A stretch of DNA of 64,000 nucleotides from contig OZ024740.1 in NCBI GenBank assembly GCA_964016885.1, positions 327,174,001-327,238,000 on the forward strand, written 5' to 3'. Position numbers and translations under genes: made by a program. Source of the DNA: Eledone cirrhosa (taxonomy: Eukaryota). The notes under the pieces were generated by a model. That model was not told the origin of the DNA and did not search any database. It saw only the letters and a list, made by a program, of their open reading frames with translations. Of the stretch, positions 7,205 to 63,400 are shown one piece after another (positions within the stretch are counted from its first letter, which is position 1; every line of letters begins with the position of its first letter).

Positions 7205-7349
<145 letters not shown>

Positions 7350-7863
7350 ACAATTAGTTAGCACCCCGAACGTTTAATTACGAATATACTCAGGTATTTC
7401 CTAATGTTTGTTGTGTGAGTTGGAATTTGGCCGGAGTATCGCTATTAGCTTTATCCGATTATGTATTTATATTTACTCTTGGAGCAACAGATATGAACTT
7501 TCCCGATGTAAGGTATGACTCTCTTTGTTTATTTTTTTTATATGAATATTGATTGTTTGTTCTTGTATCTCATTCTGTTATTTTGCCCGAGAAAATATCT
7601 GTGTGTCATCAAGCGATGCGCACATATGGTTATTTTTTCATATCCAATTGAGTTCTAGCACGTGGCTTGAATTCTTTTCAGAATTCATTGACCTGCGCAT
7701 GTATTGTTTTTTGGCGGCAATCTCCTTCCTCCTATTTTAGAGTCAGTGTGAGATTTTCTTTAGAACTGCTGGACTAACAACCTAGCAGCTCCCTCAAGCA
7801 CTGATGGTGATTATCGATAAATATTGATGTTGATTTGGTTATCAATATTAATATAATTGGGCA

Positions 7864-7971
7864 CCCACTGAAGAATTATAAGAGCCCACTTGAATAAGTA
7901 TCTGTTGATAATTTGATATAATTTCACCCAACTTGTAGAAATCTTATAGTGAAACGAGAGGTATGTCTGGG
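7864..7971 (+). ncRNA. Type-I hammerhead ribozyme with long stem II insert
   Basis: CCCA-CTGAAGA-ATTATAAGA(~58 nt)TCTTATAGT-GAAA-C(GAGAGGTAT)G-TC-TGGG. Stems I and II pair. Predicted GUC cleavage after 7967. Confidence 0.75.
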
Positions 7972-8161
7972 AAGAGATGTATTTGATATATCTCATATGA
8001 AATAATACAGCCAATTTTCCACACAATACAATTAGTTAGCACCCCGAACGTTTAATTAGGAATATACTCAGGTATTTCCTAATGTTTGTTGAGTGAGTTG
8101 GAATTTGGCCGGAGTATCGCTATTAGCTTTCTCCGATTATGTATTTATATATATATATATA

Positions 8162-8557
8162 TATTGTTATACTTTCGGAGGGTCATGTTGCCAATAAAAA
8201 CACATGCACCTGTTGGTTTGATAACCGGAAGTTTGTTTATATATTGTCTCTCCTTTGTTCTGTCCTACACCATCAAAACCAATATAATGTAGGACAGAAC
8301 AAAGGAGAGGCACACAATAAAAACCTAGTCACTGAGGAGTTCACAGAATGTGTGACGAAAGACCTTTGACAATATATAAACAACCTTCTGGTAATCGAGC
8401 CAACCAACCAACCAACCGGAAATTTATAATAAATTGACGTGAAAACCAACAGGTGCATCTGTTTTTATTGGCAACATGACCTTCCCAAAGTATAACAATA
8501 TCTGTTTCAACACACGTTTCAGATAAGAAATCTCACAAAACAAATTCAAAAACGAAT
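8162..8557 (+). mobile_element. Inverted-repeat element with asymmetric 3' tail (Penelope pLTR-like); same family as 62433-62850
   Basis: TATTGTTATACTTTCGGAGGGTCATGTTGCCAATAAAAACA at the left is inverted at ~8443-8500. A ~55 bp tail TCTGTTTCAACAC... is shared with the 62.8 kb copy. Flanked by (TA)n. Confidence 0.8.
8328..8370 (+). ncRNA. Minimal hammerhead-like motif
   Basis: GTCA-CTGAGGA-GTTCACA GAATG TGTGAC-GAAA-GACC-TT-TGAC. Core intact, 4-bp stem I, stem II hairpin, 1-bp stem III. Confidence 0.6.
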
Positions 8558-8576
8558 TATATATATATATCGGGCA

Positions 8577-8698
8577 TCCACTGATGATTTATAAGTGCCC
8601 ACCTACATATATTCCTATGGACTATGTGTAGGCTTTTACATAACATGGACATTATTTTCCCAATTTGTAGAAAACTTATAATGAAACGATCGTTTGGA
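8577..8698 (+). ncRNA. Type-I hammerhead ribozyme, paralog of 7864-7971
   Basis: TCCA-CTGATGA-TTTATAAG(...)CTTATAAT-GAAA-CGATCG-TT-TGGA. Palindromic stem III CGATCG. Stem I covaries with the paralog (TCCA/TGGA vs CCCA/TGGG). Confidence 0.75.
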
Positions 8699-9034
8699 AA
8701 GAGAGATGTATTTAATTATGTCTCATATAAAATAATACAACTGGCTATCCACAAAATACGTATAGTTAGCACCCAAACGTATAATTGGGATTATACTAAG
8801 GTATATCCTAATGTTTGTTGAGTGAGACGGAAGCCGGTCGGAGTATTGCTTAAAGCTTTCTCTGTTAATGTATTATATATATATATATATATATATACGT
8901 TCATGAATACATAAATACAAGTAAACATAAACACCTTTATATCTCTCTATATATAAGGATTTCTTTATTTCTTTATTTCTCTATTTCTCTATAATAACAA
9001 CTGCCATGAATTACATATGGAGATCTCCCCCCCC

Positions 9035-9167
<133 letters not shown>

Positions 9168-9762
9168 TATATATATATATATACATAAATATATATATAT
9201 GTATATATATATGCATATATATATATATATATATGTATGTGTATATTTCAAACGAATATGCTTAAAAATGGAAGCAGTTAAGAAAAGAACTAAAGTAACG
9301 AAAACAAAAACAACAACAAAAGGAAATAAGCCCCGAGGCTTATAAACTTACATCAATAACATATTTCTACAAGATATAGTGGAATTATCTAGGTGACTAG
9401 GTCGCAGAAGTGCCACAAAATGAATTAAGAACAATTGAAAATGGAATCTAGTAGCTTTGTTTCGGTGTTCTTACATAGATAAAATGATTCTTGCACGATG
9501 TAAATTGCTTTAGTTTTAAGGAAATCAAATCAACTGACAAACAAGTACATCCACACACGTGTACACACACACACATGCGCAGGTATATATATATATGGGG
9601 AGTGTCATATTTGTGTAATATTGCCAGAATTAATAACAGAACACACTAACTGTTTGGTTGGTATCGGTTAATTTAATTTATTCGGTCCTCAATGTTACCA
9701 TTGACTGACAAACGATCAAAAATACAGATACAATATAGACACAACCACATATATATATAGTC

Positions 9763-9806
9763 TATAAAAGTTCTTTCGTTGCACATCTGCAACATCGTCA
9801 GTGGTG
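9763..9806 (-). ncRNA. Degenerate minimal hammerhead motif (family shared with 63355-63389)
   Basis: Minus strand reads CACCA-CTGACGA-T-GTTGCA GATG TGCAAC-GAAA-GAAC-TT. Stem I is decayed. Confidence 0.5.
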
Positions 9807-9918
9807 CTATTATGTTTCCTCCCGTTGCATTGTATGCCTACGCCATCTTTATTTAGTCTGTTTATTTATTTATTTATTTGTTTATTTTTTTGTCTTCTCT
9901 GCGCATGCGTTTGCGTGT

Positions 9919-10229
9919 GTGTATAGTGTTTTGTTTGATGTGTGTTCTTGTTTGGGTGACTGTGTATTGGTTAATGTATTCTATCTTAGTTTACTAGTGT
10001 GTGTTTATATGTGTTTGTTGTAATTGTGCTTGTGTATGTATTTATTTATTTATTTATACTTCTAGTAGGTCAGTGTTGTTTGTTTGGGTGTTGTTATTCC
10101 ATTCGTTTTTTTCTGATTAGCCTTGGCCTTCTAAGTTCTATAATAGAACTTAGAAGGTCAAGGCTAAACAGAAAAAACGAATGGAATAACAACAACACCA
10201 AAACAAATAACACTGACCTAAGAGAAGTA

Positions 10230-10264
<35 letters not shown>

Positions 10265-10387
10265 ATACATACACAAGCACAATTACAACAAACACATATA
10301 AACACACACTAGTAAACTAAGATAGAATACATTAACCAATACACAGTCACCCAAACAAGAATACACATCAAACAAAACACTATACAC
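9919..10387. repeat. Long near-perfect palindrome, arms ~220-245 bp, centre at 10142
   Basis: ...CCTTCTAAGTTCTAT A ATAGAACTTAGAAGG..., with arms matching out to GTGTATAGTG / CACTATACAC. Confidence 0.95.
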
Positions 10388-13895: not shown

Positions 13896-14382
13896 TATTA
13901 TCATACTATTTATAACTTCTGTTTTTTTTCAGGGAGTTGAAACGAAGTGGAGACTGACTGTTTAGCTTGGAGTTTCTACTTCAGCTGTTAAATGGTACGG
14001 GTGAAAGCGGCTGGTGTGCCACTGGCTGGAAGAAAGATGTCCACGCTGAGTCTAAAGGTTCCCTCCGAGAAAAGGAGGTTTACGAAGCTTGGCTTGGAAA
14101 TAAGTTTTCTTTCTTGCACTCGAGGCACAAGTAGGCGACAAAAGCGTCTTGGGGAGTCTTTGAAATTACCAGAACAATTAAAGTACTCAAATATGTCAAG
14201 GCCTCTAGGGAGGATGGAATTCAGTCTGAGATGGTAAAGTTTTAAATAGAAAAGGTGATGACACGTGTGTGCCGGTGGCCTGGATCTCAGAAAAGTGATA
14301 GAAGCAATGGCAATCGGGTGTGATAAAGAAAAGTTTCGACAAAGAGAGTTGAGAGTGTGTGTGTGAGAGAGAGGGATATATA

Positions 14383-14704
14383 TACTATAAGAATAAAGGA
14401 ACAAAGATTCAGTGTTGCATCATAACATATTTAATAACATACTACTTATGTTTCACTATCGGAGACGAGGTCACATAGGAAACATATCTGATGATCTTTC
14501 GATTACAGAGTCAGGTTCGATCAATAATAGGTCGTTCTTCGAGCTGATCGATTGTGAAACATATGTAATATGTTATTAAATATGTTATGATGCTACACTG
14601 AATCCTTGTTCCTTTATTCTTATAGTATTATACACTGCTCTGTTCGAGCATCGAGTGCTCAACCGGCATTCCGCCTACGGACGCAATTTTTCTTGCAACC
14701 ATAC

Positions 14705-19358: not shown

Positions 19359-19477
19359 CGTATAAATATTTCGTATCTCCAAAGAAATACGGTTTTAGGA
19401 AGCCGTAGCTATGAAAACACCGGGGGGGGGGGGGGTCTGACGCCCTCTGGTGATGTCCAGCAGAAGCAAGGAGGACA

Positions 19478-19521
19478 ACCGTCTATGCATTTCAGGCTTA
19501 ACTGGCCTTCGTCAGGACGGT
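19478..19521 (-). ncRNA. Minimal type-I hammerhead ribozyme (minus-strand copy)
   Basis: Exact reverse complement of 19638-19681. Confidence 0.85.
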
Positions 19522-19637
19522 CCCTCCCACCGCTTGCGACTGCTGGACTAGAAGACAGGTGAGAATATATACTTTTCTCGTCTGTGTAAATGAGGTGATT
19601 AATCTCATTTGCATATGAAGTCGCAAGGGTGGGAGGG

Positions 19638-19681
19638 ACCGTCCTGACGAAGGCCAGTTAAGCCTGAAATGCATAGACGGT
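19638..19681 (+). ncRNA. Minimal type-I hammerhead ribozyme
   Basis: ACCGTC-CTGACGA-AGGC CAGTTAA GCCT-GAAA-TGCA-TA-GACGGT. Perfect 6-bp stem I, 4-bp stem II, palindromic TGCA loop III, predicted cleavage after 19675. Confidence 0.88.
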
Positions 19682-20048
19682 TGTCCTCCTTGCTTCTGCT
19701 GGACATCACCAGAGGGCGTCAGCCCCCCGGTGTTTTCATAGCTACGGCTTCCTAAAACCGTATTTCGTTGGAGATACGAAATATTTATACATATTGTATA
19801 TGCTTGAAGCGAAATCTTATTTCTTTTATATATATATATATATATACATATCGGAAGTTGTTTTTCGCTAATTCCAAAGCCGAAATACGATTCTCGTTAA
19901 TTTATATTTGTATATATACATATATGTATATACCTATATATGCGTGTGTCTGTATGCATCGAAGTTTTAAGGCTACGTATCGCTTATCATGTCTAAAACG
20001 TATCTAAAGCTGATATTGGAATATATATGTATAGATATGCGCGTGCGC

Positions 20049-22896: not shown

Positions 22897-24073
22897 GTAA
22901 ATAAACTTGTAATACTCTTTAAGTAAACTTCTAATACCCTTTAAGTAAACCTGTAATACTCTTTAAGTAAACTTGTAATACCCTTTAAGTAAACTTGTAA
23001 TACTCTTTAAGTAAACTTGTAATACTCTTTAAGTAAACTTGTAATACCATTTAAGTGACCTTGTAATACCATTTAAGTAAACTTGTAATACTCTTTAAGT
23101 AAACTTGTAATACCATTTAAGTGACCTTGTAATACCATCTAAGTAAACTTGTAATACTCTTTAAGTAAACTTGTAATACTCTTTAAGTAAACTTGTAATA
23201 CTCTTTAAGTAAACTTGTAATACCCTTTAAGTAAACTTGTAATACTCTTTAAGTAAACTTGTAATACTCTTTAAGTAAACTTGTAATACCATTTAAGTGA
23301 CCTTGTAATACCATTTAAGTAAACTTGTAATACTCTTTAAGTAAACTTGTAATACTCTTTAAGTAAACTTGTAATACTCTTTAAGTAAACTTGTAATACC
23401 CTTTAAGTAAACTTGTAATACCATTTAAGTAAACTTGTAATACTCTTTAAGTAAACTTGTAATACTCTTTAAGTAAACTTGTAATACTCTTTAAGTAAAC
23501 TTGTAATACTCTTTAAGTAAACTTGTAATACCCTTTAAATAAGCTTGTAATACTCTTTAAGTAAACTTGTAATACCCTTTAAGTAAACTTGTAATACCAT
23601 TTAAGTAAACTTGTAATACTCTTTAAGTAAACTTGTAATACCCTTTAAATAAGCTTGTAATACTCTTTAAGTAAACCTGTAATACTCTTTAAGTAAACTT
23701 GTAATACCATTAAGTAAACTTGTAATACCATTTAAGTAAACTTGTAATACTCTTTAAGTAAACTTGTAATACTCTTTAAGTAAACTTGTAATACTCTTTA
23801 AGTAAACTTGTAATATTCTTTAAGTAAACTTGTAATACCCTTTAAATAAGCTTGTAATACTCTTTAAGTAAACCTGTAATACTCTTTAAGTAAACTTGTA
23901 ATACCATTAAGTAAACTTGTAATACTCTTTAAGTAAACTTGTAATACTCTTTAAGTAAACTTGTAATACTCTTTAAGTAAACTTGTAATACCCTTTAAGT
24001 AAACTTGTAATACTCTTTAAGTAAACTTGTAATACTCTTTAAGTAAACTTGTAATACCCTTTAAGTAAACTTC
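22897..24073. repeat. 22-bp minisatellite (TAATACTCTTTAAGTAAACTTG), roughly 53 copies
   Basis: Direct reading. Variants CTCT/CCCT/CCAT, GTGACC and AATAAGC. Confidence 0.97.
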
Positions 24074-24096
24074 ATAACCTTTAATCCTGAACATTA

Positions 24097-35850: not shown

Positions 35851-35867
35851 TCATCAGTTATTTCTAC

Positions 35868-36090
35868 TTGTTTCTACTTTAGGCACAAGGCCACCAATTA
35901 CCCAGTGCATTACTGGTACTTTATTTTATCGACCCCGTAAGGGTGAAAGGCCAAGTCAACCTCGGCGGGATTTGATCTGAGTTCAAATCCCGCCGAGGTT
36001 GACTTTGCCTTTCATCCTTATGGGGTCGATAAAATAAAGTACCAGTAATGCACTGGGTAATTGCTGGCCTTGTGCCTAAAGTAGAAACAA
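35868..36090. mobile_element. Head-to-head pair of 5'-truncated SINEs forming a ~108-bp-arm palindrome
   Basis: ...CCTCGGCGGGATTTGA TCTGAGT TCAAATCCCGCCGAGG... Confidence 0.92.
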
Positions 36091-36110
36091 TTATTATTAT
36101 TATCAGTAGT

Positions 36111-36862: not shown

Positions 36863-39800
36863 TTACAGATATATGCTCAGAGTCGGCCCATTCACTCGGG
36901 CCATTCTTGCTTCTCTCACCCATCTTTCAACAAAATGCTGGGAAGAGAGCACTTCCTTCTCTACTCTGATTTTCCTTTTCAAATGAAATTTGAAAAAGTC
37001 AATCAGAGCATCACCGAAGAGGTAAGTGCTCGTCTTCAGCCCTTTCAAACGTGTCCACCATACTATCTCTTTCGCCATGGCCACCAGACAGATAAAAACT
37101 GCCTGCCCTTCCCGGCTAAAGGAGGAGGGCGGGGCAATCCTCACGATAGACTCAGATGATAGCTGGATCCGTCCTAAACGCGACAGCAGGTGTTCGACAT
37201 AAACCCACAAGTCAGCAATTTTCGGACACTGGACGAGTGCGTGCAGGACGGTTTCGTCGCCCTGCGCGCATCTCGGACATGCCCGGCTGACGGCACCTCC
37301 ATGCCTGTAGAGTTTATCCCGAACTGGCAAGGCTCCTCGGTAGCACTGCCAGGCCAGAGATTTCTGGAAGTTGTCCATAGGCCCTGGCCCGAAAGTTCTT
37401 CCGAAGAGATTGGCTAGTTGATTTTCGTCGACGCCTAGAGTTTCCCCAAGTACGTCGTCGCTCTTCCCCTCCACTAATCCTCTATAGAACGCCGAGGTGG
37501 AGTTTCCACCGATCACATTGCCCGATTGGTCGAGGGCTGTGAGCGCCTGAAGACATTCCAGTCTCCAGGCGCTCCCTCTCGGTCTTCGCTTGATCCAGGA
37601 CTGCAGCTCCGTCAAGGAAACGAGCTGGGGAAAAACGCGTCTAGCAAACGGCGACCACACCTGATCACCGTCGAGGAAGAGGTGGAGATGTCGTAGCCTG
37701 AGCGCGTGCCTGCGCATCATCAGCAACGGCATGCCCAGCCCTCCACGTAGCGGGTGTTGACAACAGATGGACCGCCTGACCATCGGAGCACGTCCCTTCC
37801 ACAAAAAGCGAAAGAGCAAACGCTCCAGCGCAGTCAGGCGAGGCTTAGGACAAGGTACGACGGTTAGGCGGTAGCAGATGACAGACGCGATGTACGCGTT
37901 AGCCACCTCCGCTCGACCTTTCAGTGATAGCTTCCTCTCCGCCCATTTCTGGGTGAGAGAAGCCACCCTGCTCGTCACCTCGTCCCAGTTTTTGTCCGTC
38001 TGGAGGTCCGGACCGAACCAGACCCCTAGCAATTTAACCGGTCCGTCCGTCCAGCGCCCGACGACGCTGTTGGACGGCATGGACCTGCCTCTCCAGGTGC
38101 CGAGCTGCAGGCCCACTGACTTTTCCTGGTTGATCATTGCTCCTGTCACCGCTTCGTATTCTCTTAGTGCCGATCGCCTCGATGTGTTTGGCGTTCGACA
38201 CCACTACGGTGACATCGTCCGCATATGCTGACACGGATCTTCCGCATCCTAGTTCGCGCGGGACTCCCCTCAACGTCTCCAGTTTGTGCAGTAATGGCTC
38301 GAGCGTCAATACGTACAAGAGGGACGAGAGGGGACATCCTTGGCGGACCGAGCGCATGATGTTGAACGGTTCCGACAGGTGACCGTTTACTCTCACCACA
38401 GAGCAGATGTCGCTGTGCATGGCAGCGATCCAGCCTCTGAAGACGGGCCCAAAGCCAGCCGCCCTCAGGACTGCCGCTAGGTAACGATGGTCGACCCTAT
38501 CGAAAGCTTTCGACTGATCTAAATTGATCAAGGACCCACCCGTGCCAGGTTCCCTAGCTACCCTCTCTACGATGTATCGCATGAGGTGGAGGTTGTCGTG
38601 GATGGATCTGTCGGGAATGGCGCATGTCTGCGCCTCTCCCACCAGACCACTAACGACAAGCGCCAACCTCTTTGCTAGCACCTTGGCCAAAATCTTAAAC
38701 TCTGTGTTTAGCAGAGTTATGGGCCGGAAATTGTCTATGTTATCCCCCTTGTTCGGATCCTTTCTCAGCAGTGCCACCGCTCCTCGGCTCACAGAACTGG
38801 GAATTCTCCCGTTCTGTTGCCAGTTGCAGTAGACGTCCGCCAAGAGGCCTCCGAACAAGTCTGGCATCTGTACGTAAAGTTCATAGGGCAGACCATCCAA
38901 ACCAGGCGATTTACCCCTTGTGCAGCCAGTCATTGCCTCCCGTACTTCAGCGGCTGTTATCGACTTTTCGCAACACTTCGCCTCAGTGGCCGAGAGCCGC
39001 GGCAGTCCGTCGAGGTAGACACTAAAGTCCATCCCTCTACCCGGCCCCCCGCTGCCCCCGAACAGCTGAGCGAAGTGTCGCTGGAAAGCTTCACACATTT
39101 GCCCGGGATCGAGTAGCATGCGCCCGTCGTGGTCCACCAAAGACCGGATCGTGGCTTTGTTGCCACGACGCGCCTCCGCCACTCGGGCCCATTGAACGGC
39201 TTTCGTCCCCTCGTGTCTGAGAGCACGCACCCTAGCTCTGACAACGCAGCCTTCGTGCTTTGCATTGAAGAATTGGTCAAGGGCCAATTTCGCCGCAAGC
39301 ACGTCGGTCGCAATGCCTTTGCTAAGCGCCTCGTCTAATTTTCTAACTAGTTCTCCCTCTGCTCTATTTTTCTCTATTGCTAAAGCCTTACTAAACCTAA
39401 TCGATTCTATTCTAATCGCTCTTTTCAGAGCAAACCACCACTTGTTGTTGACGATGGCCCCCGTCAACGCCCGCTTAACTAGTTCGCTAATCCGGTCTCT
39501 GTAGGCCTTGCGCGCTGGTAAGGACGCGTTTAGCTTCCAGTAGCCGGGTCCTCGTCTATGAAGCCTATCTAAGTCAAGCACACAGGTCACGAATTTGTGG
39601 TCCGTGTAGCTGACTATCTTGAATTGTGGACAGCCTATGCTAGACCTATCTATTTCCCTACAAAATACTCTATCTAGATATGATCTGGATGACCCTATGC
39701 GGTTTGTCCAAGTCCACATTGGCACATTCGGGAAATCCAATCGGTACCTGTCAGACAGTTCAAAACGCCTGAGCAGGTTGGTGAGGCTCTTGCACCCTCC

Positions 39801-40277
39801 ACCCCTATCCGCTAATCCCACACAGTCCCAGCGTGCATCTAAGATCCCGTTCCAGTCGCCCACTAACACTAAAGAGCGGGACGTTCCAAGAAAGGTCTCC
39901 AGACGCCGGAAGAAATCAGGCCGCCCTGCTCCTGTCGGGGCATAGACGGCCACTAGCCTGAAAGCTTGCCCGTCTCCGCTGGTCACGTCCAGCACCACCA
40001 GCTTACCCTCTGGGTCCAGGAAGATGGCCCGTATGGCGAGATCCAAACCTCTCCGAAAAAGCACAGCAACTCCTCCACCCGATCCAGGACGGCTGGGAGA
40101 TGCGTACACATCGTAGCCGCCGAAGATCGGTGCGAAGGCCCGTGCTTCGGAGATTCTGGTCTCGCTGATGGCCACTACATCTATGTTTAGTGACCTGAGG
40201 TCGTTGAGCAGGTGACCCTGCTTCCATGACGACCCCAAGCCACGCGCATTTATGCTGCCTATTCTGAGTGAGGTCAT
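36863..40277 (-). pseudogene. Tx1-A ORF2 (APE endonuclease + RT + C-terminal zinc motif) with one frameshift near 38160
   Basis: SINARGL, ISET, GDWN, SYLDR, TDH (APE); PGLDG, FRPITLLN, KAFDRV, QGCPLS, YADD (RT); CPRC...HALVQC. Split into 747-aa and 428-aa frames. Confidence 0.93.
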
Positions 40278-40312
40278 GTTTAAAATAGAGTGGAAAAGAT
40301 GGGAAAGACCAC

Positions 40313-42409
40313 TTACCGTACTTTTGGTAGAGGAGGGATGGTTTTTACATCCCTTTTCACTTGATCGTCTGGTGAAGGGACCGTTGAATCGTCCCTTCGG
40401 CTGGTCGCCGGCTCTTCTAAGAGAATGTCTGAATATACTCTTCGATTGATGGTTCCTCCTAGGTCCCTGAAATCACCAACTGCGTTGGGGAATTTCGTTT
40501 TAATGTTTGTGTATTGTTTCTGTGCTATTTTTAGCAGTCTTATGTTAGTTGGCGTTTTGATTGGTGCTGGTATTATGTAGTCCTGTTGTGAAATGTCTGT
40601 GTGTTCAATTATGTAAGTCATTAGTTTCTTGTTGTGTGTGTTTATTGCCGTGCATTTGTTTTTCTGGGGGTGGGGTGTGGTTCTGCTATTTTCTTGTCGT
40701 TGTTGCTGGGTGTGTGTGTTTTGTTGTTGTGTTTGCGATGTTGGTGCTTGTGGTGGTGGTGTTGAAGGTGTTGTTGGCGGTGGGGTTGTCGCCGGTGGTG
40801 ATGGTGGTGCTGGTGTGGGTGGTGATGGTGTTGGTGGTGTTGCTGCTGTGGGTCTCTTTGCAGTAGACTTTACCCTTTTCTCATTTCTTTCCTCCCTTTT
40901 CAAAGGCGACGATGCGCTGCTTCTGCGTTTGTGCCTTCTTGCGACCTTTTGCCATCCCTCTCCCACCTCACACTCCATGTCTGATTCTGTAAGGTCGGGG
41001 AGGGGTACCAGCTCCACTCTTTCACTTGTTGTTGTTGGTGATGTTTGCACTGGAGTCTCTGTTGCAGCTGCATTTGGTATTGCTGTTGTTGTTGTTAATA
41101 TTTCCACTGCTGCTGCTGTCTTTGATTTCCGTGGAGTGGGTATGGGTGCCACGGACCTATCGTTCCTGGTTGCCGCTTGTCCTGTTGCTGGTAGCCGTGG
41201 AGCCGGATTCGGAAGGAGGGGGGTTTTCTCCTTTCTCAGGGTCTTCTCGTTGCAGAAGGCCCTGAGGTGAGTCTTCGATCCACAGCGAAAGCATTTCGGG
41301 CGTTTGCCCTCAACACTTATGGGCAGTTGAGTGCCGTTATCGAAGTCTATCACATCCGGGATAGCTTCGATGCACTCCTGGTTGGTTTGGATTAGCATCT
41401 CAATGGAGGAGCCGACCCAATCTTCTCTTACTTTTTTCTGTACTTGCAGTACAGTTGTTTTGTCCTCGATTCCGACGAGGACAGACGCGGCCAGCCAAGA
41501 AGGGGTCATTCCGGGGGGGACGTGGGTCAGTTTGACCCTCACAATTTTTTGCCCGCAGTAGGAGGGCACCAACACCATTTCCTCGCTCCTTAGGGTCACT
41601 ACTGATTGGGCCTTTGCCTCCTGGGGTGTGGCAAAAAGTACGTCTACGGTGGCGTATTTTTTGCCTCGGGTGATGTGCGTTTTCCGCTGCCACACAGACC
41701 CCAAGGCTTTTTGTATTTGGGCCTCTGTGGCTCTTTCCACCCTACGGGATTTTGTACTTACTGTACGGTACGTGACCGTACAGTGCTCTTGGGTTTCGAA
41801 AAAATTTTTCGCTGCCTTGCAGATTGCTCGGTGTCCGTTCTTTGTCACCATCTTCTTCGCTTCCTCTAATTCCTCATTTGTTATGAGGATTGTTTCCAAG
41901 TTTTTCGCAATACCTGCAAATGAGATTGGTTTTTCTCTGCTGTTGTTGTTGTCGTCAGAGCTGCTGGTACTTTTGTTGTTGCTGCAGGTACTACGACTAC
42001 TGCCTCCGCCGCTGTTGCTGTGGTTGTTGTTGGTGTTGCTGCTGCTAATGCTGTTGTTGTTTATGCTGCTGGTGATGCTGTTGCGGCTGCTACTGTTGTT
42101 TTCATTGTCACTGTTGCTGTTGTTATTACGGCTGCTACTGCTATTATTCCTGACGTCAGACGAATGAACTGGGTTTTCGTATTTCCCGCACACCTGTTTC
42201 GTCGCTGTCGTCGTAGTCGTGGAGAAACCTTGCACGCTTTGCACGAGACTTTTCTTTTCTTTCGTCACTTGCGAAAGAGAAGGGAGGGAGAGAGACACAT
42301 TTAAAGAAGGGAGGGAGAGAGACAATCTTCTCTCTGCTGTAGTGATGATTGAGGAAGAAGAAGACGGAATGAGTGGGAGTGACGTATGAAATTTCTTTTT
42401 CGTAGCCAT
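40313..42409 (-). CDS. Tx1-A ORF1, gag-like nucleic-acid-binding protein, 698 aa
   Basis: Upstream of ORF2. CCHC knuckle CFRCGSKTHLRAFC, low-complexity S/N and P/T linkers. Confidence 0.88.
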   Translation of the reverse strand: MATKKKFHTSLPLIPSSSSSIITTAERRLSLSLPSLNVSLSLPSLSQVTKEKKSLVQSVQGFSTTTTTATKQVCGKYENPVHSSDVRNNSSSSRNNNSNSDNENNSSSRNSITSSINNNSISSSNTNNNHSNSGGGSSRSTCSNNKSTSSSDDNNNSREKPISFAGIAKNLETILITNEELEEAKKMVTKNGHRAICKAAKNFFETQEHCTVTYRTVSTKSRRVERATEAQIQKALGSVWQRKTHITRGKKYATVDVLFATPQEAKAQSVVTLRSEEMVLVPSYCGQKIVRVKLTHVPPGMTPSWLAASVLVGIEDKTTVLQVQKKVREDWVGSSIEMLIQTNQECIEAIPDVIDFDNGTQLPISVEGKRPKCFRCGSKTHLRAFCNEKTLRKEKTPLLPNPAPRLPATGQAATRNDRSVAPIPTPRKSKTAAAVEILTTTTAIPNAAATETPVQTSPTTTSERVELVPLPDLTESDMECEVGEGWQKVARRHKRRSSASSPLKREERNEKRVKSTAKRPTAATPPTPSPPTPAPPSPPATTPPPTTPSTPPPQAPTSQTQQQNTHTQQQRQENSRTTPHPQKNKCTAINTHNKKLMTYIIEHTDISQQDYIIPAPIKTPTNIRLLKIAQKQYTNIKTKFPNAVGDFRDLGGTINRRVYSDILLEEPATSRRDDSTVPSPDDQVKRDVKTIPPLPKVR

Positions 42410-42894
42410 GTTGTTTTTTGTTTAAAATGAAATTTTGGGTACAAAACCCCAATAACTGGTTATTTAACCCCGAAGGGCCAAATAACGGACATAAAGACCC
42501 CTCTCACGAGGAGGAGGGTGTCTTTATCAACAATTTGGTTCAAGTTTTAAACAATTTACAATTGTTTTAACGGTTAAAAATTACTATACCTTACAGAGCC
42601 GAGCCTCCGTCAACCATGGCATTCAATAATAATAATAATAATGATTTCATTTATTGGCCACAAGGGCCGACATATAGGGGACAACACAATAGACAGGGAC
42701 AGTGGGGGTTTACATAGAGATCGAGTAAGTATAAATAACAAAAAACAAAATAACAATAAAAATACAACAATGAAAGTTCCCCAATAAGAGGGATCACCAC
42801 CCAGGGTTGACTCAAGCACCCCACCAGTCCTGAGCCACCCGACGCTCCTAGGGCACCCGGGAAGGGCACCCCTCTCCTTCTCGAATTCACCAGC

Positions 42895-45800
42895 CTACAG
42901 GCGCATGATCAGAGTAGGCCCACTCACGCGGGCCATTCTCGCCACATTCACCCACCTTTCAGTAAATGTACTGGGGGGCAGCACTTCTCTCTCCACCCTC
43001 ACCTTCCTTTCCAAGTGAAACTTGAAGAAGTTGATGAGGGATTGGCCGAAGAGAAAAGTGTCTGTCTTCAGTCCTTTCAACCTGGTCCACCATGCAACCT
43101 CTTTCGCTACTGCCACCAGGCAGAGGAAAATTTCCTGCCCTTCCTGACCAAAAGAAGGCGGCGGGTCAATCTTCACTATGGACTCGGACGATAGCCGGAT
43201 CCGTTCTACACGCGACAATAGCTGTTCGACATAACCCCACAAGTCAGCAATGCACGGACACTGGACGAGTGAGTGCAGAACGGTTTCGTCGCTCTGCGCG
43301 CATCTCGGGCAGGTTCGTCTGACAGCACTTCCGTGCCTGTAGAGTTTATCCCGAACCGGCAGCGCCCCCCGGTAGCACTGCCAAGCGAGGGATTTCTGGA
43401 AGTTATCCATCGTCCCCGGCTCGAAAGTCCTCCGGAACATACTGGTCAGTTCTACTTCGTTGACGCCTAGAGCCTCTCCTAGTACGTCATCGTACTTGCC
43501 CTCCACTAATCCTCTATAGAAATCTTGAGTGGAAGTTCCACTGACCGCATTGCCCACCTTGCAGAGTGCAGTGAGCGCCTGGCAACATTCCAGATGCCAG
43601 TCGCCCAGTCTCAGTCTCTTCTTGACCCAGGACTGCAGCTCAGTCAAAGAGATGAGCTGCGGAAAGGCCCGTCTAACAAACGGCGACCACACCTGTTCAC
43701 CTTTTAGGCAAAATATCTGGAGATGTCGCAGCCTCAGCGCATGTCTGCGCATCATTAGCCACGGCATGCCCAGCCCTCCACGAAGAGGGTGCTGGCAGCA
43801 GATGGACCGCCTCACCAACGGGACCCGTCCCCTCCACAAAAATTTGAAAAGGAGCCGTTCCAAATTGGCGAGGCGTGGACGGGGGCAAGGCACGACGGTC
43901 AGGCGGTAGTAGATGACGGACGCGATGTACGCGTTCGCCACCTCCGCCCGCCCTTTCAGTGATAGCTTTCTCTCAGCCCATTTCTGGGTGAGGTTGGCTA
44001 TCCTGCTCGTCACCTCGTCCCAATTCTTATCCACCTGGAGGTCTGGTCCGAACCAAACCCCGAGCAACTTTACCGGTCCGTCTGTCCAGCGCCCAACGAC
44101 GCTGTTGGACGGCATGGACTTGCCTCTCCAGGTGCCGAGCTGCAAGCCCACCGACTTTTCCGGGTTAAGTTTTGCTCCCGTCAACCTTTCATATTCCTCC
44201 AAATGGGGGCGGATGACCTCGATTTCCGAGGTGTCCGACACCATCACGGTGATGTCGTCCGCATAAGCGGACGCAGCCTTTCTACGTCCCGGTTCGAGCG
44301 GGATGCCCTGCAACAACTCCAGCTTCCGCAGTAGAGGCTCAAGAGTCAATACGTACAGAAGTGAGGAGAGAGGGCACCCTTGACGGACCGATCGAGAGAT
44401 CTGAAACGGTTCCGAGAGGTGGCCATTAACTTTGACCACCGAGTAGATGCCGCTGTACATTGCAGCGATCCAGCTTCTGAAGACGGGGCCGAAGCCAGCC
44501 GCCTCGAGGACAGCCTCCAAGTACCGATGGTCGACCCTATCGAATGCTTTCGATTGATCTAAATTGATCAGAGCCCCACCGAAGCCAAGTTTGCACCCAA
44601 CCCTCTCTATGATGTATCGCATGAGGTGGAGGTTGTCGTGTATGGACCTGGTCGGGATTGCGCAAGTTTGCGCCTCCCCAACCAAATCTTTGACGACAAG
44701 CGCCAACCTTTTCGCTAACACCTTGGCCAAAATCTTAAACTCTGTGTTGAGCAGGGTTATGGGCCTGAAATTATCTAGTGTGTCCCTCTTGTTCTCGTCT
44801 TTCCTTATCAGCGTCACTACGCCACGGCTCACAGAACTGGGAATGCTCCCGTTCTGCTGCCAGTTGCAGTAGAGCGCTTCGAGGAGATTGGAAAACAAGT
44901 CTGGCATATTTACGTAAAGCTCGTAGGGCAGACCATCCAAACCGGGTGACTTGCGACTCGAGCAGCCGACAAGGGCGTCCTGAATTTCGACTGATGTTAT
45001 CGGCTCTTCGCAGCGCTCAGCGTCGGCCGTCGAGAGGCGTGGCAAGCCGTCGAGGTAGGGACTGAAGTCCGCCGCCGTCTCCGACTCACCCATCCTCCCG
45101 AACAATCGAGCAAAGTGCTGGCGAAAGGCCTCACACATCTGCTTGGAATCGCTCAGTTCGTGTCCATCTCGATCCGTCAAAGACCGAATTGTGGTTTTAT
45201 TTCCACGCTGCGTCTCTGCAAAGCGAGCCCATCGGGCAGCTTTGGTTCCCTCGTTCCTCAGAGCACGCGCCTTAGCTCTGACAATGCAACCTTCGTGTTT
45301 CGCATTGAAGAAATGGTCTAGTGCCATTCTCGCCGCTAGCACGTCTGTTGCAATGCCACTACAAATAGCCTCGTCTAACTTAGCTATCAGCCCCTCCTCC
45401 TTTCTATTTTTCTCTATTGCTACTTCTTTGCTAAATCCTATCGAGGTTGCTCTAATCTCTCTTTTGAGTGCCCCCCACCACCTGTTGTTGACAACCCCCC
45501 CTGTCAACTTTTGCTTAACTAAGTTGTTGACCCGGTCCCTGTAAGCTTTACGTGCCGGAAACGACATGTTTAGCTTCCAGTAGCTAGGTCCTAACCTACG
45601 TGTCTTATCTAGGTCGACCATACAGATCACAAGCTTGTGATCTGAATAGGCAACCGTTTTAAAATGTGGACATCCTACACTATTTCTATCTCTTTTCCTA
45701 ATGAAAATCCTATCTATGTACGATCTAGATGACCCTATGCGATTGGTCCAGGTCCATACTGGCGCATTAGGGAAATCTAGTCGGTACCTGTCAGACAGTT

Positions 45801-46314
45801 GAAACTGGCTGATCAGGTACTTGAGGCTTTTGCACCCCCCGCTCCTATCAGATATTCCCACACAATCCCAGCGTGCTTCTAAGATGCCATTCCAATCCCC
45901 TATTAACAGTAAAGGGCGAGACGTAAGCAGAAAGTTTTCCAGGCGCCTAAAGAAGTCCGGCCGACCGGCCCCAGTAGGGGCGTAGACGGCCACCAGTCTA
46001 AAGGCACCACCTTCGCTATTGCTCACGTCCAGGACCACCAACTTTCCGTCAGGATCCCGGAAGATTGACCTTACCTCGAGATCCAGACATTTCCTAAACA
46101 GCACAGCCACTCCACCTCCCATTCCCGGCCGACTAACAGATGCAAAGATCTGATAATCGTCGAAAATCGGCGCCAGTGCGCGTGTGTCGGAAATTCTGGT
46201 CTCGCTGTTGGCAATTACATCCATTCCTAGTGACCTGAGGTCGTTGAGCAAGTGACCTTGCTTCCAGGGCGACCCCAGGCCACGAACATTTAAACTTCCT
46301 ACTCTTATGGCCAT
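42895..46314 (-). CDS. Tx1-B ORF2, intact 1139 aa APE-RT protein
   Basis: All APE and RT motifs in one frame (NVRGL, GDWN, SDH, KAFDRV, QGCPLS, YADD) plus C-terminal CPRC...H...C. Confidence 0.96.
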   Translation of the reverse strand: MAIRVGSLNVRGLGSPWKQGHLLNDLRSLGMDVIANSETRISDTRALAPIFDDYQIFASVSRPGMGGGVAVLFRKCLDLEVRSIFRDPDGKLVVLDVSNSEGGAFRLVAVYAPTGAGRPDFFRRLENFLLTSRPLLLIGDWNGILEARWDCVGISDRSGGCKSLKYLISQFQLSDRYRLDFPNAPVWTWTNRIGSSRSYIDRIFIRKRDRNSVGCPHFKTVAYSDHKLVICMVDLDKTRRLGPSYWKLNMSFPARKAYRDRVNNLVKQKLTGGVVNNRWWGALKREIRATSIGFSKEVAIEKNRKEEGLIAKLDEAICSGIATDVLAARMALDHFFNAKHEGCIVRAKARALRNEGTKAARWARFAETQRGNKTTIRSLTDRDGHELSDSKQMCEAFRQHFARLFGRMGESETAADFSPYLDGLPRLSTADAERCEEPITSVEIQDALVGCSSRKSPGLDGLPYELYVNMPDLFSNLLEALYCNWQQNGSIPSSVSRGVVTLIRKDENKRDTLDNFRPITLLNTEFKILAKVLAKRLALVVKDLVGEAQTCAIPTRSIHDNLHLMRYIIERVGCKLGFGGALINLDQSKAFDRVDHRYLEAVLEAAGFGPVFRSWIAAMYSGIYSVVKVNGHLSEPFQISRSVRQGCPLSSLLYVLTLEPLLRKLELLQGIPLEPGRRKAASAYADDITVMVSDTSEIEVIRPHLEEYERLTGAKLNPEKSVGLQLGTWRGKSMPSNSVVGRWTDGPVKLLGVWFGPDLQVDKNWDEVTSRIANLTQKWAERKLSLKGRAEVANAYIASVIYYRLTVVPCPRPRLANLERLLFKFLWRGRVPLVRRSICCQHPLRGGLGMPWLMMRRHALRLRHLQIFCLKGEQVWSPFVRRAFPQLISLTELQSWVKKRLRLGDWHLECCQALTALCKVGNAVSGTSTQDFYRGLVEGKYDDVLGEALGVNEVELTSMFRRTFEPGTMDNFQKSLAWQCYRGALPVRDKLYRHGSAVRRTCPRCAQSDETVLHSLVQCPCIADLWGYVEQLLSRVERIRLSSESIVKIDPPPSFGQEGQEIFLCLVAVAKEVAWWTRLKGLKTDTFLFGQSLINFFKFHLERKVRVEREVLPPSTFTERWVNVARMARVSGPTLIMRL

Positions 46315-46343
46315 GCTGGCAGGATGAATGGGAGAGGAAAGGT

Positions 46344-48246
46344 TTACTTACCTTCCGGGGTCTTGTGAAGGTCGGGTGGTTCGACCTCCATGGTTTGTGG
46401 GGTTTCTTTTGGGAACCCCTTTAATAGTCTTGACGTGGGTTTTACGTTCGGGGTTCCCACATCCCGAGGAAAGCTCTTTCGAATTTCTTTGTATGAAGCG
46501 AGCGACATTCGCATCAGAAGCAAATTATCTGGTACGCGAAATGTGCTCGCTTCAAATGTTTCCCCCTCTTTTTCGATGTTTGTGCTTCGTGCTACATGGG
46601 CCATCAATTCCTTGTTGGCCCTTCTGGCAAGCACGAAGTTTTTAATGTTTTGTTGCTCGGGTTTTATTTGTTCGTGTGATTGTGGTGGTGATAGCTTTGT
46701 TTCTATTGTGTCTGCGTTTGTTGTGGGTGGGGTGTCTGTAGTTTCTGATGTTTGTGTGTCTATTTGTTCTTGTGTCTGTTTAGCTTGTTTGCGTTTGGGG
46801 GATTTTGGTGGTTGTGTTGGTGATGCTGTGGGGAAAATGTTTGTGTGGGTGGTGTGTGTATTTTTTTTTTGTGGGGGTGTTTGTGCTTTGTGGATTTCTT
46901 TTTTTTTTGTGTTTTGTTTTTTGTATTTTGGGGGACTTTGGTTTTCCCTCATCTTCACTGCTGGAGGATGAGGGGTCTGTGGCTGTGAGCGTGTTTGTGT
47001 CTGAGTGAGTGTTTATGTTCTTGTTCGTGTGTGTATTTTGGGGGGGAGGGGGAATGGGAGAGCTTTCCTCGTTTCCCCCCTGGGTGTGCAATTTTGGTGG
47101 TTCCATTGTTGACGGTGTTGCTGGTGGTCCTTGTCCCGGCGTCGCCAGCAGTGGAATCTTTCGACCCCTTGCGCTTTTCGGCAGTTGAGGGCAGAAGGCT
47201 CGCAAGTGTGTCGTTTTCCCACAAAGGAAACAATGCGGCCTTTTGCCCTCAGTCATTATATGCAACACCCTCCCGTTTTGGAGGCGGATGTGGTCCGGGA
47301 TTGCTTTTACGTTTTCGGGTCTGATTTGGAGCAGTATCTCCAGATCAACCCCGGACCAGTCGTCCCTGGCAGTTCTCGTTGCCTCTACCGGGACTGTATC
47401 CGTTCCTTCCACGATTACGCAACCCATGAGCCACCACATATCAAGTCCTGGTGGAATCCTGGGAATGCGCACACGTGCTATTCGTTTTCCCATGTGGGAG
47501 GGGTACATTATGACCTTGCTGGTTTTGCAAGGGGTCATTGAATGCTTCACAGCGAAGGCTTCAGACTTGAACAGCACCGAAACGGTGCCGTATTGCCTGC
47601 CCCTCTCTATGAAGTTTGTGTCCTCTCTGATGTATTTCAGTGCGGCTTTTATATCAGCTTGGGCGATTATCGCTGCCCTCTTTGTCTCTACTGAGATGCA
47701 TCTGAAATGCACCGTTCTTTTTTCCACTGCCTCAATGGCTTCTGCCGGGACAGTTAAGTTTGCCCAGGTCTGCTCTTGATTTATGATTTTCCAGGCCTGG
47801 GCCAACTTTTCCTCTCTGTTGGTTAAGTCGATGCTGTAGCATGGTCTCCTTTTAGCCGCTGCGACAGCAGCGAAGGTGTTCTTGTTGGTGTTGTTACTGT
47901 TGTTGTTCTTGTTGGTGTTGCTGCTGCTATTGCTGTTGTTGTTCTCCCCTGTGTCGTGGTTACCCTCTGTGCTGTTGGCCTTGTTGGTGCTGCTGCTGTC
48001 GCTACTATTACTCTCTGTGCTGTTCGTTTTGTTGGTGCTCTCGCTATTACCACCTTCTGCGCTGTTCGGCTTGTTGGTGTTGGTGTTGTCGCTGTTACCA
48101 CCTTCCGCGCCGCTCGGCCCGTTGGTGCTGGCACTGTCGCTGCTCACACTCGTGCTGGTGGCGCTCCTCGCCCCACCTCTCCTCTCAACGCTCAAGTCGC
48201 CGTTGCACGACAGCAGACCCGCCTCCAGGGGGCGTGGCTCCGCCAT
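46344..48246 (-). CDS. Tx1-B ORF1 with an apparent frameshift in the homopolymer-rich linker (~46780-46960)
   Basis: The 488-aa frame has CFLCGKTTHLRAFC. The 204-aa frame ends in a domain homologous to the C-terminus of Tx1-A ORF1. Confidence 0.8.
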
Positions 48247-48481
48247 GTTTTTTTGAGAAAAAAAATTATTATTTTTCCAAAATAAAGTTCAAATATTTGG
48301 GCCAAAAGGCCCAAATATTATGAGTTATTCCTTCACAGGATACAAATGAATGTCTTATAATGCTTCAGCGGTACAAAAAAATAAACAATTCTCCACAATT
48401 AATCCTCAAAAAATTGCTTACTCACGGAGCTTCAAAAAACGTACATCCACTTTCGTCAATAATAATAATAATAATAATAAT

Positions 48482-50924
48482 AGAGTGAAGATGAAAAAAC
48501 AAAGGAATTCCCACAAGAAATCTACTTGGCAAGAGAACATCAATCGCCAAATAAACCTTCTCCGATCTGACATAGAAATTTTAACAAACTATAAAGTAGG
48601 TGAACATGTTAAACAAACTAAACTTAGAAAATTGAAAAGAAAGTACAGTATAAAATCAACAAGTGACATAGACATGCTGATAGAAATAATCAAGCAAAAA
48701 GTGTCGGCCAAAGCTGCTCGTATAAGGCGCTTTGAAAAACGATCTAGATTCTATAAGGTTAATAATATGTTCAGAAACAACCAAAGAAACTTCTACAGAA
48801 AAATTGGTAAGTCAACAATAACTGCTAAATCAATACCACCCAAGGAGGAAGTGCAAGAATTCTGGGAAAAGATCTGGGCCGAAGAAAAAGTTCATAACAT
48901 ACATGCCCCATGGATAGACAGACAAATGAAAGATACAGCTCACCTTGAGGAACAAATATGGGAAAATATAACAGTTGAACAGTTGCACTTGGCTCTAAGA
49001 AAAACCAGCAAATGGAAATCCCCAGGAAAAGACAAAATACAAAATATTTGGATAAATGCCTTCACAGAGTCTCATGAGCTGTTAGCCCAGCTTTACAATG
49101 AAATAGTTAAGGAGCCAGAAAAGATACCATCATGGCTAGTTAACGGCATTACATTCCTGCTTCCGAAGAATGATGAGACAAACAATCCCAAAAATTACAG
49201 ACGGATAACTTGCTTGACCACAATGTATACAATTTTAACATCAGTCCTAACTGAATATACATATGACGACCTGATAACAAATGACCTATTTCCCATTGAG
49301 CAGAAAGGGTGTAAACGAGGCTCATATGGCTGTAGGGATCAGCTTTTGGTTAACAAAATGATACTGGAAGATTGTCATAATAGACACAAAAATCTATCAA
49401 TTGCTTGGATAGATTATAAAAAAGCATTCGATAGTTTGCCACACAGTTGGATTGAAAAATGTTTAGAGATTTTCAAAATATCCCCCGTTGTCAGGAGGTT
49501 TTTGTCATTCAGTATGAAGACATGGAAAACGACACTCCTTTTGAATAGTGAAACAAAATCACTGGAAGCTGGAGAAGTTAATATTAATTGTGGAATTTTT
49601 CAGGGTGACTCTTTTTCACCGCTTTTATTCTGCATCGCACTTATACCATTAAGTAAAATGCTCAATGAAAATTCTTAACCATGCACAGAATGCATCACCC
49701 TAAGGCAGATATAGATAGAATATATCTCCCTAGGAAAGAAGGAGGACGTGGGTTAATCCAGTTAGACATTGCTTTGAAAACTGCAACAATTGGATTATCT
49801 ACATATCTAAGGGCATCACATGATTGGATGATCAAACTCGTTTTGAAACACGAAAGCATCAAAAGATCATATTCCATTACAAAAGATGCACAAAGATACA
49901 GTAATGGACTACAAATTTCAGAAGTCCCATTTACTGCTGAAATGGAAAACACAGAAAAAGCAAAGCAGGTAAAAGTAACTGCAAAGAAAGAACTGCTACA
50001 GAAACTGGCTAAGAAATGGCAAGAAAAGCCTCTGTATGGAAAATACCCAGAACGAGCTAACAATCCTGATGTTGACAAAACTTTAACCCATCAGTGGTTG
50101 GCATCCTCTGGACTGAAATCGGAGACTGAAGGACTGATTATATCAGCACAAGATCAGTGTCTGCCAACAAAAAATTACCAAGCCAACATAATAAAAAATG
50201 GATGCAGCCCATTATGCCGTGTATGCAAAAAACAACCAGAGACCATTGACCATATAATTTCAATGTGCAGTCCTATAGCTCTAACCGAATACCTAAACAG
50301 GCATGACAGAGGTGCACAATATATACATTGGATAATGTGTAAGCATTTTGACCTGCCCCATCAAAAGAATTGGTGGGAGCATCAACCACCTCCCATACTT
50401 GAAAAAGATCACATCTCAATCTTGTGGAACTTTAGCATCCAAACAGACCGAAAAATAGATGCAAATAGACCTGATATAATATTGAAGGACTTTAAAAAGA
50501 GGGTATGCCTGCTAATTGATATGTCCGTTCCAATAGACAAGAATGTATCTATAAAAACATTTGAAAAATTGAGCAAGTATAAGGACCTGGAGATAGAATT
50601 TGGAAAAATGTGGAAATTGAGAACTAAAACAATACCAGTGGTTGTAGGCGCTCTGGGAATGATACCTAAGGGGTCTAATGATTACTTATCGCAAATCCCA
50701 GGAAACCCGCGTATAGGAGAAATACAAAAGATAGTACTAATGGGAACTGCCCATAGACTAAGGAAGATTCTGTCAATATAAGTACATCACAGGTCTAACC
50801 ACTAAAGATGCATGTGTGAGTATGTATGTTCTTCCTTGAACATGGCGGACCTTGTTGTCTCTTGAGGTCACTGGTTGTGACTTGGTGATAACTCGTATGA
50901 ACATAAAGCAAGATAAATGCAACT

Positions 50925-50926
<2 letters not shown>
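48482..50926 (+). mobile_element. R4/Dong-type RLE retrotransposon (family 1), 5'-truncated, with an internal RT deletion
   Basis: WKSPGKD, EQKGC, DYKKAFDS, GIFQGDSFSP, then a jump at ~49670 to HHPKADIDRIYL. CRVC...HIISMC and NRPDII...D...K..KY follow, then a (TAA)n tail. Confidence 0.92.
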
Positions 50927-50968
<42 letters not shown>

Positions 50969-50969
<1 letters not shown>

Positions 50970-52740: not shown

Positions 52741-52743
52741 AAC

Positions 52744-52778
<35 letters not shown>

Positions 52779-52779
<1 letters not shown>

Positions 52780-52955
52780 TGTTTCTACTTTAGGCACAAG
52801 GCCAGCAATTACCCAGTGCATTACTGGTACTTTATTTTATCGACCCCGTAAGGATGAAAGGCAAAGTCAACCTCGGCGGGATTTGAACTCAGATCGTAAA
52901 GGGACGTAACTATGCTGGAAAGCATGGCGTCCGACCCTCTACCGATACTGCCAAT
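52779..52955 (-). mobile_element. SINE inserted in the (AAT)n spacer
   Basis: Near full-length reverse-complement copy between two Dong copies. Confidence 0.92.
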
Positions 52956-52956
52956 A

Positions 52957-55420: not shown

Positions 55421-55429
55421 AATAACAAC

Positions 55430-55459
<30 letters not shown>

Positions 55460-55460
<1 letters not shown>

Positions 55461-56297: not shown

Positions 56298-56319
56298 ACA
56301 ATAATAATAATAATAATAA

Positions 56320-56441
56320 TGAATTTATTGTGTAAAGTGCTCAGGTGCACTACAACTCGTCAAAGGCGTATGTATAGTACATAGAATAATACACAAATGT
56401 CAGGGAAGTGAATAGTGTATGAGTCATGGTATACATGTGTA
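56320..56441 (-). mobile_element. Short 3' tail of an unidentified retroposon with (ATT)n end
   Basis: Minus strand ...GTTGTAGTGCACCTGAGCACTTTACACAATAAATTC(ATT)n. Unrelated to flanking Tx1 or Dong sequence. Confidence 0.6.
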
Positions 56442-63311: not shown

Positions 63312-63400
63312 AAAAATGGCGTAGACATACAATACAACAGGAGGAACATAATAGTACCACTGATGACGTGCAACGAAAGAACTTTGTTAGACTATATATA
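63312..63400 (+). mobile_element. Repeat homologous (inverted) to 9755-9850, with a decayed hammerhead core
   Basis: ATGGCGTAGACATACAATACAAC...CATAATAGTACCA-CTGATGA-CGTGCAAC-GAAA-GAAC-TT...AGACTATATATA. Confidence 0.65.

Follow-up and report, generated by a model that had tools for sequence, protein, structure and literature searches.

Long-insert hammerhead motifs in a family of non-coding, probably Penelope-like repeats

Layout of the locus

The window, by which we mean the whole 64,000-nucleotide stretch of DNA analysed here, is AT-rich and microsatellite-rich, contains several reverse-transcriptase frames of LINE type and most likely derives from an animal. Between positions 7342 and 8878 it carries two copies of a repeat with a hammerhead motif, u1 (copy 1) and u2 (copy 2), together with a partial copy, u0, and a nested element that belongs to another family:

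7342..7475, + strand: u0, a 5'-truncated copy of the u1 3' end, forming a partial tandem that resembles a pseudo-LTR; follows a (CA)n tract
7476..7858, + strand: u1 body, non-coding, upstream of the ribozyme and itself repeated
7859..7863, + strand: GGGCA, a 5' extension of stem I, complementary to GCCC at 7884-7887 and kept in copy 2
7864..7971, + strand: hammerhead motif of copy 1, type I, with stems I/II/III of 4/9/3 bp, GUC and a predicted cut after 7967
7884..7941, + strand: loop II insert of copy 1, 58 nt, apparently 19 nt short after 7909 relative to the family
7972..8153, + strand: 3' part of u1, opening with a short hairpin (7974-7994) and ending in a TA tract
8146..8164, no strand: (TA)n tract separating u1 from the nested element
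8160..8501, + strand: nested element, a long foldback made of an inverted 5'-truncated arm and a direct arm
8328..8370, + strand: minimal Penelope-type hammerhead of the nested element, with a stem I of 4 bp, a stem III of one pair and a predicted cut after 8366
8502..8557, + strand: tail of the nested element, one-sided, about 55 nt; the same tail follows 62792; loose contig ends at 8501 and 8519
8558..8570, no strand: (TA)n tract separating the nested element from u2
8572..8878, + strand: u2, a sister-subfamily copy that starts at the 5' edge of its ribozyme and ends in a TA tract
8577..8698, + strand: hammerhead motif of copy 2, type I, with a stem I of 4 bp, a stem III of 2 bp, GUU and a predicted cut after 8694
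8597..8673, + strand: loop II insert of copy 2, 77 nt, with hairpin A (8602-8632) and stem B (8634-8640/8666-8672)

The best reading of this arrangement is a pile-up of three separate insertions in a TA microsatellite; u1, the nested element and u2 all end in a TA tract. The initial annotation had described two diverged direct copies of about 300 bp as tandem repeat units. The copies are indeed direct and diverged, with 74% identity over 339 alignment columns (7851-8164 against 8563-8894), but they are not tandem units, since a different element and two TA tracts separate them, and copy 1 makes up only the 3' part of a longer non-coding unit, 678 bp in length and beginning near 7476. Its body (7476..7858) holds no stop-free frame longer than 64 aa.

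The 1.5 kb was compared with contigs from four of 11 listed public sequencing runs (X1, X4, X5 and X6), X1 being possibly the window's own sample. That copy 1 lies within a 678-bp unit placed behind its own truncated end follows from the repeat between 7342-7475 and 8020-8153 (96-97% identity over 134 nt at a spacing of 678) and from contigs that bridge the 7475/7476 junction (X4 record 9 and X5 records 17 and 18, the latter two with 45 and 32 differences) and the interval 7727-7902 (X1 record 1). As direct repeats u0 and u1 differ at 3 of 118 positions, u0 and u2 at 22 of 116. Together, u0 and u1 (7342-8153) are 1.2 head-to-tail copies of a unit of about 680-700 bp. With about 20% substitutions against u1 in the 3' part, where the hairpin 7974-7994 has its counterpart, u2 is evidently a truncated copy of a sister subfamily. 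Its first position, 8572, coincides exactly with GGGCA, just 5' of stem I, and two contigs of run X6 also begin to match there; this start is either a chance truncation or a true element boundary.

The sequences of both families are repeats, given that thousands of contigs fall on the 1.5 kb (13,863 in X1 and 13,889 in X5), most of them with less than 95% identity. In X4 the nested family runs on from 8570 into other sequence at four loose ends, and record 16 has a different continuation. Among the 15 joints and 32 pieces viewed (326 joints and 29,357 pieces lie beyond these), u1, the nested element and u2 are never linked, with the qualification that TA tracts break contigs and thereby limit links between the three parts. 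Summed depth differs by orders of magnitude between the parts, as in X5 with 7-122 over u2 against about 786,000 at the nested ribozyme, which is a hint only, because depth is no copy number and cannot rank the parts.

The arms of the nested element (8161-8219/8443-8501) are 95% identical and the fold of its foldback reaches a z-score of -19.7. The hammerhead that it carries, a third one at the locus which had been overlooked before, has one extra base ahead of stem II and acquires the G10.1-C11.1 pair with the majority letter G at 8340. A second copy of this family stands alone at 62431-62850 between TA tracts; its left arm contains an inverted partial copy of the ribozyme, and the ribozyme core in its direct arm is damaged. 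At its centre (8245-8312) the nested element has a near-perfect 25-bp hairpin, which is absent from the 62-kb copy and whose arms look like the product of an inversion at insertion. We also considered the inverted arms as ends of a DNA transposon and rejected this, as an inverted ribozyme lies in the left arm of the 62-kb copy and a tail is present on one side only in both copies.

Hammerhead motifs, their stems and the loop II insert

Both copies of the u repeat contain a real hammerhead motif of the long-stem-II kind, at the places where the initial annotation had put them. CTGA(A/T)GA begins at 7868 and 8581, the base of stem II reads TTATAAG/CTTATA(G/A), GAAAC begins at 7951 and 8683 and the GTH triplets end at 7967 and 8694, in full agreement with the conserved strings listed there. 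In copy 1 stem I (7864-7867/7968-7971) is followed by the core (7868-7874), stem II (7875-7883/7942-7950), GAAAC (7951-7955) and GUC (7965-7967); in copy 2 the order is the same, with stem I at 8577-8580/8695-8698, the core at 8581-8587, an 8-bp stem II (8589-8596/8674-8681) sitting above a U-U pair, GAAAC at 8683-8687, a stem III loop that consists of the palindrome GAUC, and GUU at 8692-8694. CUGANGA, GAAA and NUH thus occur in order in both, all 11 conserved positions are identical while N7 and H17 vary, and three stems surround the core with stem I open. A descriptor matches the window at these two sites and nowhere else, and has no match in 300 dinucleotide-shuffled windows, bearing in mind that it was written from the two motifs themselves and hence fitted after the fact.

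The motif lacks the usual, though not obligatory, G10.1-C11.1 pair and has A-U in copy 1 and U-U in copy 2; U10.1-U11.1 is described as tolerated in hammerheads in the excerpted text of PMC3088659. Rfam hammerhead models gave no match at gathering score anywhere in the window, and no hammerhead was among the 30 matches obtained for 7300-8900 at E up to 10, all of them below threshold and most of them generic microRNA hairpins. The textbook minimal hammerheads at 19.5 kb likewise gave no Rfam match at gathering score. A motif of this kind is missed by Rfam, and similar families elsewhere may be overlooked. Pattern scans for the u family in metagenomes, prokaryote genomes and viral contigs returned no family members; a single viral pattern match was rejected and taken as chance, its downstream half being absent.

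The stem I strands read CCCA/TGGG in copy 1 and TCCA/TGGA in copy 2, which amounts to the replacement of a C-G by a U-A pair. This compensatory change had been pointed out before and the swap itself is there, but it requires a structure-guided register, MAFFT setting that strand two columns apart, and taken alone (P ~0.06) it is weak evidence for selection. The register is supported by a related contig that combines the short loop III of copy 2 with the GUC and the stem I strand of copy 1. A second swap, missed so far, lies in stem II, where A7883-U7942 of copy 1 corresponds to U8596-A8674 of copy 2. Stem II also has one change from G-U to A-U and, equally unnoticed before, a broken pair at its base in copy 2 (U8588-U8682). 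Over the 13 pairs of stems I and II, counted on two full ribozyme sequences only, two changes are compensatory, one is one-sided, one pair is broken and nine are unchanged; there are six substitutions in 26 positions, about the background rate, and five of the six keep pairing (P ~0.005). For the 11 invariant core positions alone P is ~0.08 at 20% divergence. This joint value and the extra swaps in the insert described below support the proposal, already made in the initial annotation, that the RNA structure has been under selection.

In copy 2 the insert folds as hairpin A and stem B atop stem II (z -4.63, none of 200 shuffles being as stable), with pair probabilities of 0.96-1.0 for hairpin A. 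The two inserts had been taken to diverge. Their sequences do differ, as do their present lengths of 58 and 77 nt, but length and fold are apparently shared once a loss in copy 1 is allowed for. Eight contigs of run X1 diverge from the window sequence after 7909, and their shared consensus (agreement 0.91) returns to it 19 letters later, and record 25 of X6 crosses the same region of copy 1 with 19 gaps; on these grounds copy 1 appears to have lost 19 nt of its insert, and 58 and 19 nt add up to the 77 nt of copy 2. For the family version of the u1 insert, a 30-letter consensus of the eight contigs was set against the window's own 5' arm. Compared with copy 2, the first ten pairs of hairpin A then comprise four swaps, one one-sided change, one break and four unchanged pairs, and six of the seven pairs of stem B are kept (joint P 0.001-0.004 for pairs counted by eye in an ungapped register against copy 2, which is neither a fold nor an alignment). 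Both subfamilies thus appear to possess a 77-nt insert with the same two-hairpin fold. DNA template switching can repair hairpins without any selection on RNA, and tight hairpins such as those of the insert can be kept by repair at the DNA level.

A further helix, GGGC(A)/(U)GCCC, can form in both copies between the extension 5' of stem I and the start of loop II; it is invariant and so offers no covariation. In folding with nested pairs it has a probability of 0.49-0.95, with values of 0.49-0.86 for the helix of copy 1, and competes with stems I and II, stem I reaching 0.00-0.26. It may be a pseudoknot or an off-switch: alone, it would enclose and thereby block the core, while together with stems I and II it would make a pseudoknot analogous to the stem I/loop II pseudoknots that speed hammerhead cutting (PMC3088659, in part). 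In both copies and in every context tried, the minimum-energy structure is 6-12 kcal/mol more stable than the hammerhead fold. The u copies present here are decayed and may not cut. Copy 2 can form a self-complementary, palindromic dimer helix III of 10 bp with itself (-12.4 kcal/mol), the value for copy 1 with copy 2 being -5.4 kcal/mol.

Forty of 312 variant rows were viewed, of which nine lie in ribozyme regions, seven of these being majority letters (at least 95% in X1). Among these seven listed majority letters, six replace a wobble or mismatch in the window copy by a Watson-Crick pair (7916, with a pairing partner chosen by the analyst, 7949, 7964, 7979, 8340 and 8636); the seventh, at 8645, has no partner in the predicted fold. 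As most of these letters restore pairs, the master copies were probably better folded than the copies in the window. One could go further and regard the u hammerhead as allosteric, the 77-nt domain and the GGGCA/UGCCC helix holding the core inactive in an animal retrozyme of about 700 nt until a partner, for example a Penelope-type protein, bound the two-hairpin domain and triggered cutting. A mobile element of high copy number would then possess a naturally allosteric hammerhead, but we consider this quite unlikely.

Origin and spread of the u family

We think that the u copies and the nested copies are probably non-coding, hammerhead-bearing, non-autonomous Penelope-like elements of retrozyme type. 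This reading draws on layout, repetition, motif, stem covariation and the lack of an ORF, all observed directly; transcription, cutting and an autonomous Penelope-like partner, the last inferred from the layout only, would have to be added. No Penelope-type ORF was recognised by eye among the 69 frames of the window. Animal retrozymes have been proposed to belong to the non-autonomous Penelope-like class, and the first description of the locus as retrozyme-like hit the right class of element, even if the RNA of about 730 nt including the nested element that it envisaged is not supported as a biological unit.

Under the Penelope-like reading, a Penelope-type reverse transcriptase/GIY-YIG protein provided in trans would bind read-through RNA, nick AT-rich DNA and prime internally, 115-190 nt downstream of the ribozyme; the resulting copies would be 5'-truncated, partially tandem or inverted. 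Master copies would have kept the type I hammerhead, probably a weak or dimer cutter, to process read-through RNA, and in the u family its loop II would be the conserved 77-nt two-hairpin domain. In four elements the distance between predicted cut site and element end is 115-191 nt, which agrees with internal priming downstream of the ribozyme as observed in vitro for one Penelope-like element (PMC11167929, in part); for u1, the nested element and u2 the distance from the 3' end is 135-191 nt and the insertion sites are (TA)n. According to the same source, the ribozyme of that element did not cut unless protein was present, and insertion did not depend on this ribozyme. The layout reported for Penelope-like insertions includes partial tandems, an inverted 5'-truncated arm and a one-sided tail, together with a bias for (TA)n (10.1101/2021.04.23.441226, in excerpt). 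A partial tandem (pseudo-LTR) with a 5'-truncated upstream copy is present in u0/u1, with its junction bridged in other copies; the inverted arm and the one-sided tail are present in the nested element, and neither was observed here in the u family. The fold energetics, the missing G10.1-C11.1 pair and the lack of an Rfam match speak against the Penelope-like reading.

The main rival is a classical tandem retrozyme, in which arrays of about 680-700 bp would give rise to a circular RNA of about 700 nt and the locus would be a fragment of 1.2 units. A head-to-tail junction exists here and in diverged contigs, one unit folded as a circle is modestly more stable than its shuffles (z -2.9, 40 shuffles), and a palindromic loop III suits dimer cleavage in tandem copies (PMC4209133, in part). 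However, two consecutive ribozyme-bearing units were not seen at the locus, where u2 is non-contiguous, the period of 678 bp compares with 150-450 bp in animal retrozymes (PMC7229834, in excerpt) and eight of nine dimer constructs remained uncut in one test on vertebrate sequences (10.64898/2026.07.22.740005, in part). We regard this alternative as unlikely, and the locus is not classed as a non-LTR retrozyme because neither two consecutive ribozyme units nor a monomer of 150-450 bp is found here.

The specific circle proposed at the outset, released as a 727-nt RNA (7968-8694) by cuts at 7967 and 8694 and including the nested element, has an even poorer standing. Both ribozymes have the same sense and lie 727 nt apart, a hybrid stem I, containing one G-U pair, could arise between the ends, and the stretch is very stable as a circle (z -17.4). 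Most likely, though, this stability stems from the nested foldback, which alone exceeds it (z -19.7). The nested family also exists independently at 62.4 kb and X4 has loose ends at 8570, the three parts are unlinked among the joints and pieces viewed, a third hammerhead would lie inside the RNA and the dimer helix between u1 and u2 is weak. It is not impossible that this one locus occasionally yields a circle, a chimera of three elements, but a circular retrozyme of this composition seems extremely improbable. Alternatively, the u copies may be a SINE-like repeat or truncated 3' ends of an autonomous element, with the motif as a relic and the hairpins kept by DNA repair. This would fit the low predicted occupancy of the hammerhead fold and the dispensability of ribozyme cutting for Penelope-like insertion in vitro (PMC11167929, in part), and the LINE-type ORFs of the window could supply the reverse transcriptase. 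On the other hand, stems I and II close over 60-100 nt, are no tight hairpins and yet show pair-keeping changes, and the ORF-less 678-bp period recurs across copies; we hold a relic to be very unlikely.

Known hammerheads and neighbouring repeats

Hammerheads are a familiar feature of Penelope-like elements and animal retrozymes, and the class is not new. By analogy with these, the u ribozyme may work like that of animal retrozymes or Penelope pseudo-LTRs, as far as the excerpts of PMC7229834, 10.64898/2026.07.22.740005, PMC6765202 and PMC6155905 go. The non-LTR retrozymes described in parts of PMC7229834 and 10.64898/2026.07.22.740005 share with the u family a non-coding repeat of low GC content with a type I hammerhead, a short stem III with palindromic loop and a head-to-tail junction, and one axolotl family even has a U-U pair at the base of helix II as in copy 2. 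They differ in monomer length (150-450 bp against about 680-700 bp), whereas the u family is represented here by 1.2 units and has the 77-nt two-hairpin loop II. With the hammerheads of Penelope pseudo-LTRs (PMC4209133, in part), the u motif has in common a helix I of 4 bp, a helix II that is longer than usual and a weak or palindromic helix III, and with the layout of Penelope-like elements (10.1101/2021.04.23.441226, in excerpt) the locus shares the partial tandem, the inverted 5'-truncated arm, the one-sided tail and the TA-microsatellite sites. The nested element matches Penelope hammerheads closely in its short helix I, the extra base before helix II and G10.1-C11.1 (PMC4209133, in part); its tail of about 55 nt exceeds the 30-40 nt given for Penelope-like elements in the excerpted literature. 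Compared with the Penelope hammerheads in the same excerpts, the u motif comes without an ORF, has an AU-rich helix II that lacks G10.1-C11.1 and no extra base in front of it, and carries a large folded insert.

Pseudoknot hammerheads (Perreault et al. 2011, PMC3088659, in part) resemble the u motif in a helix of 4-5 bp that can pair the strand preceding stem I with the beginning of loop II. In the u family, however, stem II is 4-5 bp longer than stem I and there is no linker, for which reason the GGGCA helix may compete with the active fold. The discontinuous Clec2 hammerhead of mammals (PMC6155905, in excerpt) is likewise genomic, with core halves split by a long insert. It is a type III hammerhead that has 150-1500 nt inserted in helix I and resides in a host 3' UTR, in contrast to the u hammerhead, which is of type I, has its insert in loop II and belongs to a high-copy mobile repeat. 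What may be new is a high-copy animal family with a conserved folded loop II domain. In the literature consulted we came across no animal element with a conserved two-hairpin loop II, although the supplements of PMC3088659 and PMC4209133 could contain such variants; the excerpts of PMC3185516 and PMC10085705 do not mention long inserts in loop II. For the question of what the ribozyme does in Penelope-like mobility, a family such as this, with many natural variants and a separable domain, would be a handy test case.

Further repeats in the window deserve mention. At 19360-19828 an inverted pair of identical minimal hammerheads (19515 on the minus and 19644 on the plus strand) forms a palindrome of about 430 bp between microsatellites, with a one-sided tail of 38 nt, and is a textbook Penelope-like remnant. 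Another repeat family, represented by 63312-63477 (+) and 9673-9850 (-) with 80% similarity, contains a decayed minimal hammerhead-like motif (CTGA..GA, a short stem II and GAAAGAACTTT). Other long palindromes, some of them adjoining microsatellites, lie at 456-789, 9919-10387, 14377-14632 and 35865-36093; a relaxed scan found no hammerhead in them. On the minus strand, 36863-48288 comprises tandem two-ORF elements of LINE type whose endonuclease and reverse-transcriptase frames reach 1150 aa and which, from their motifs, we take to be L1/Tx1-like. They are followed at 48350-56320 by a cluster of broken, partly duplicated (93-95%) reverse-transcriptase frames with a C-terminal restriction-like endonuclease motif, presumably R4/Dong-like. 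Finally, 22898-24084 is occupied by a satellite-like array whose periods are multiples of 22 bp.
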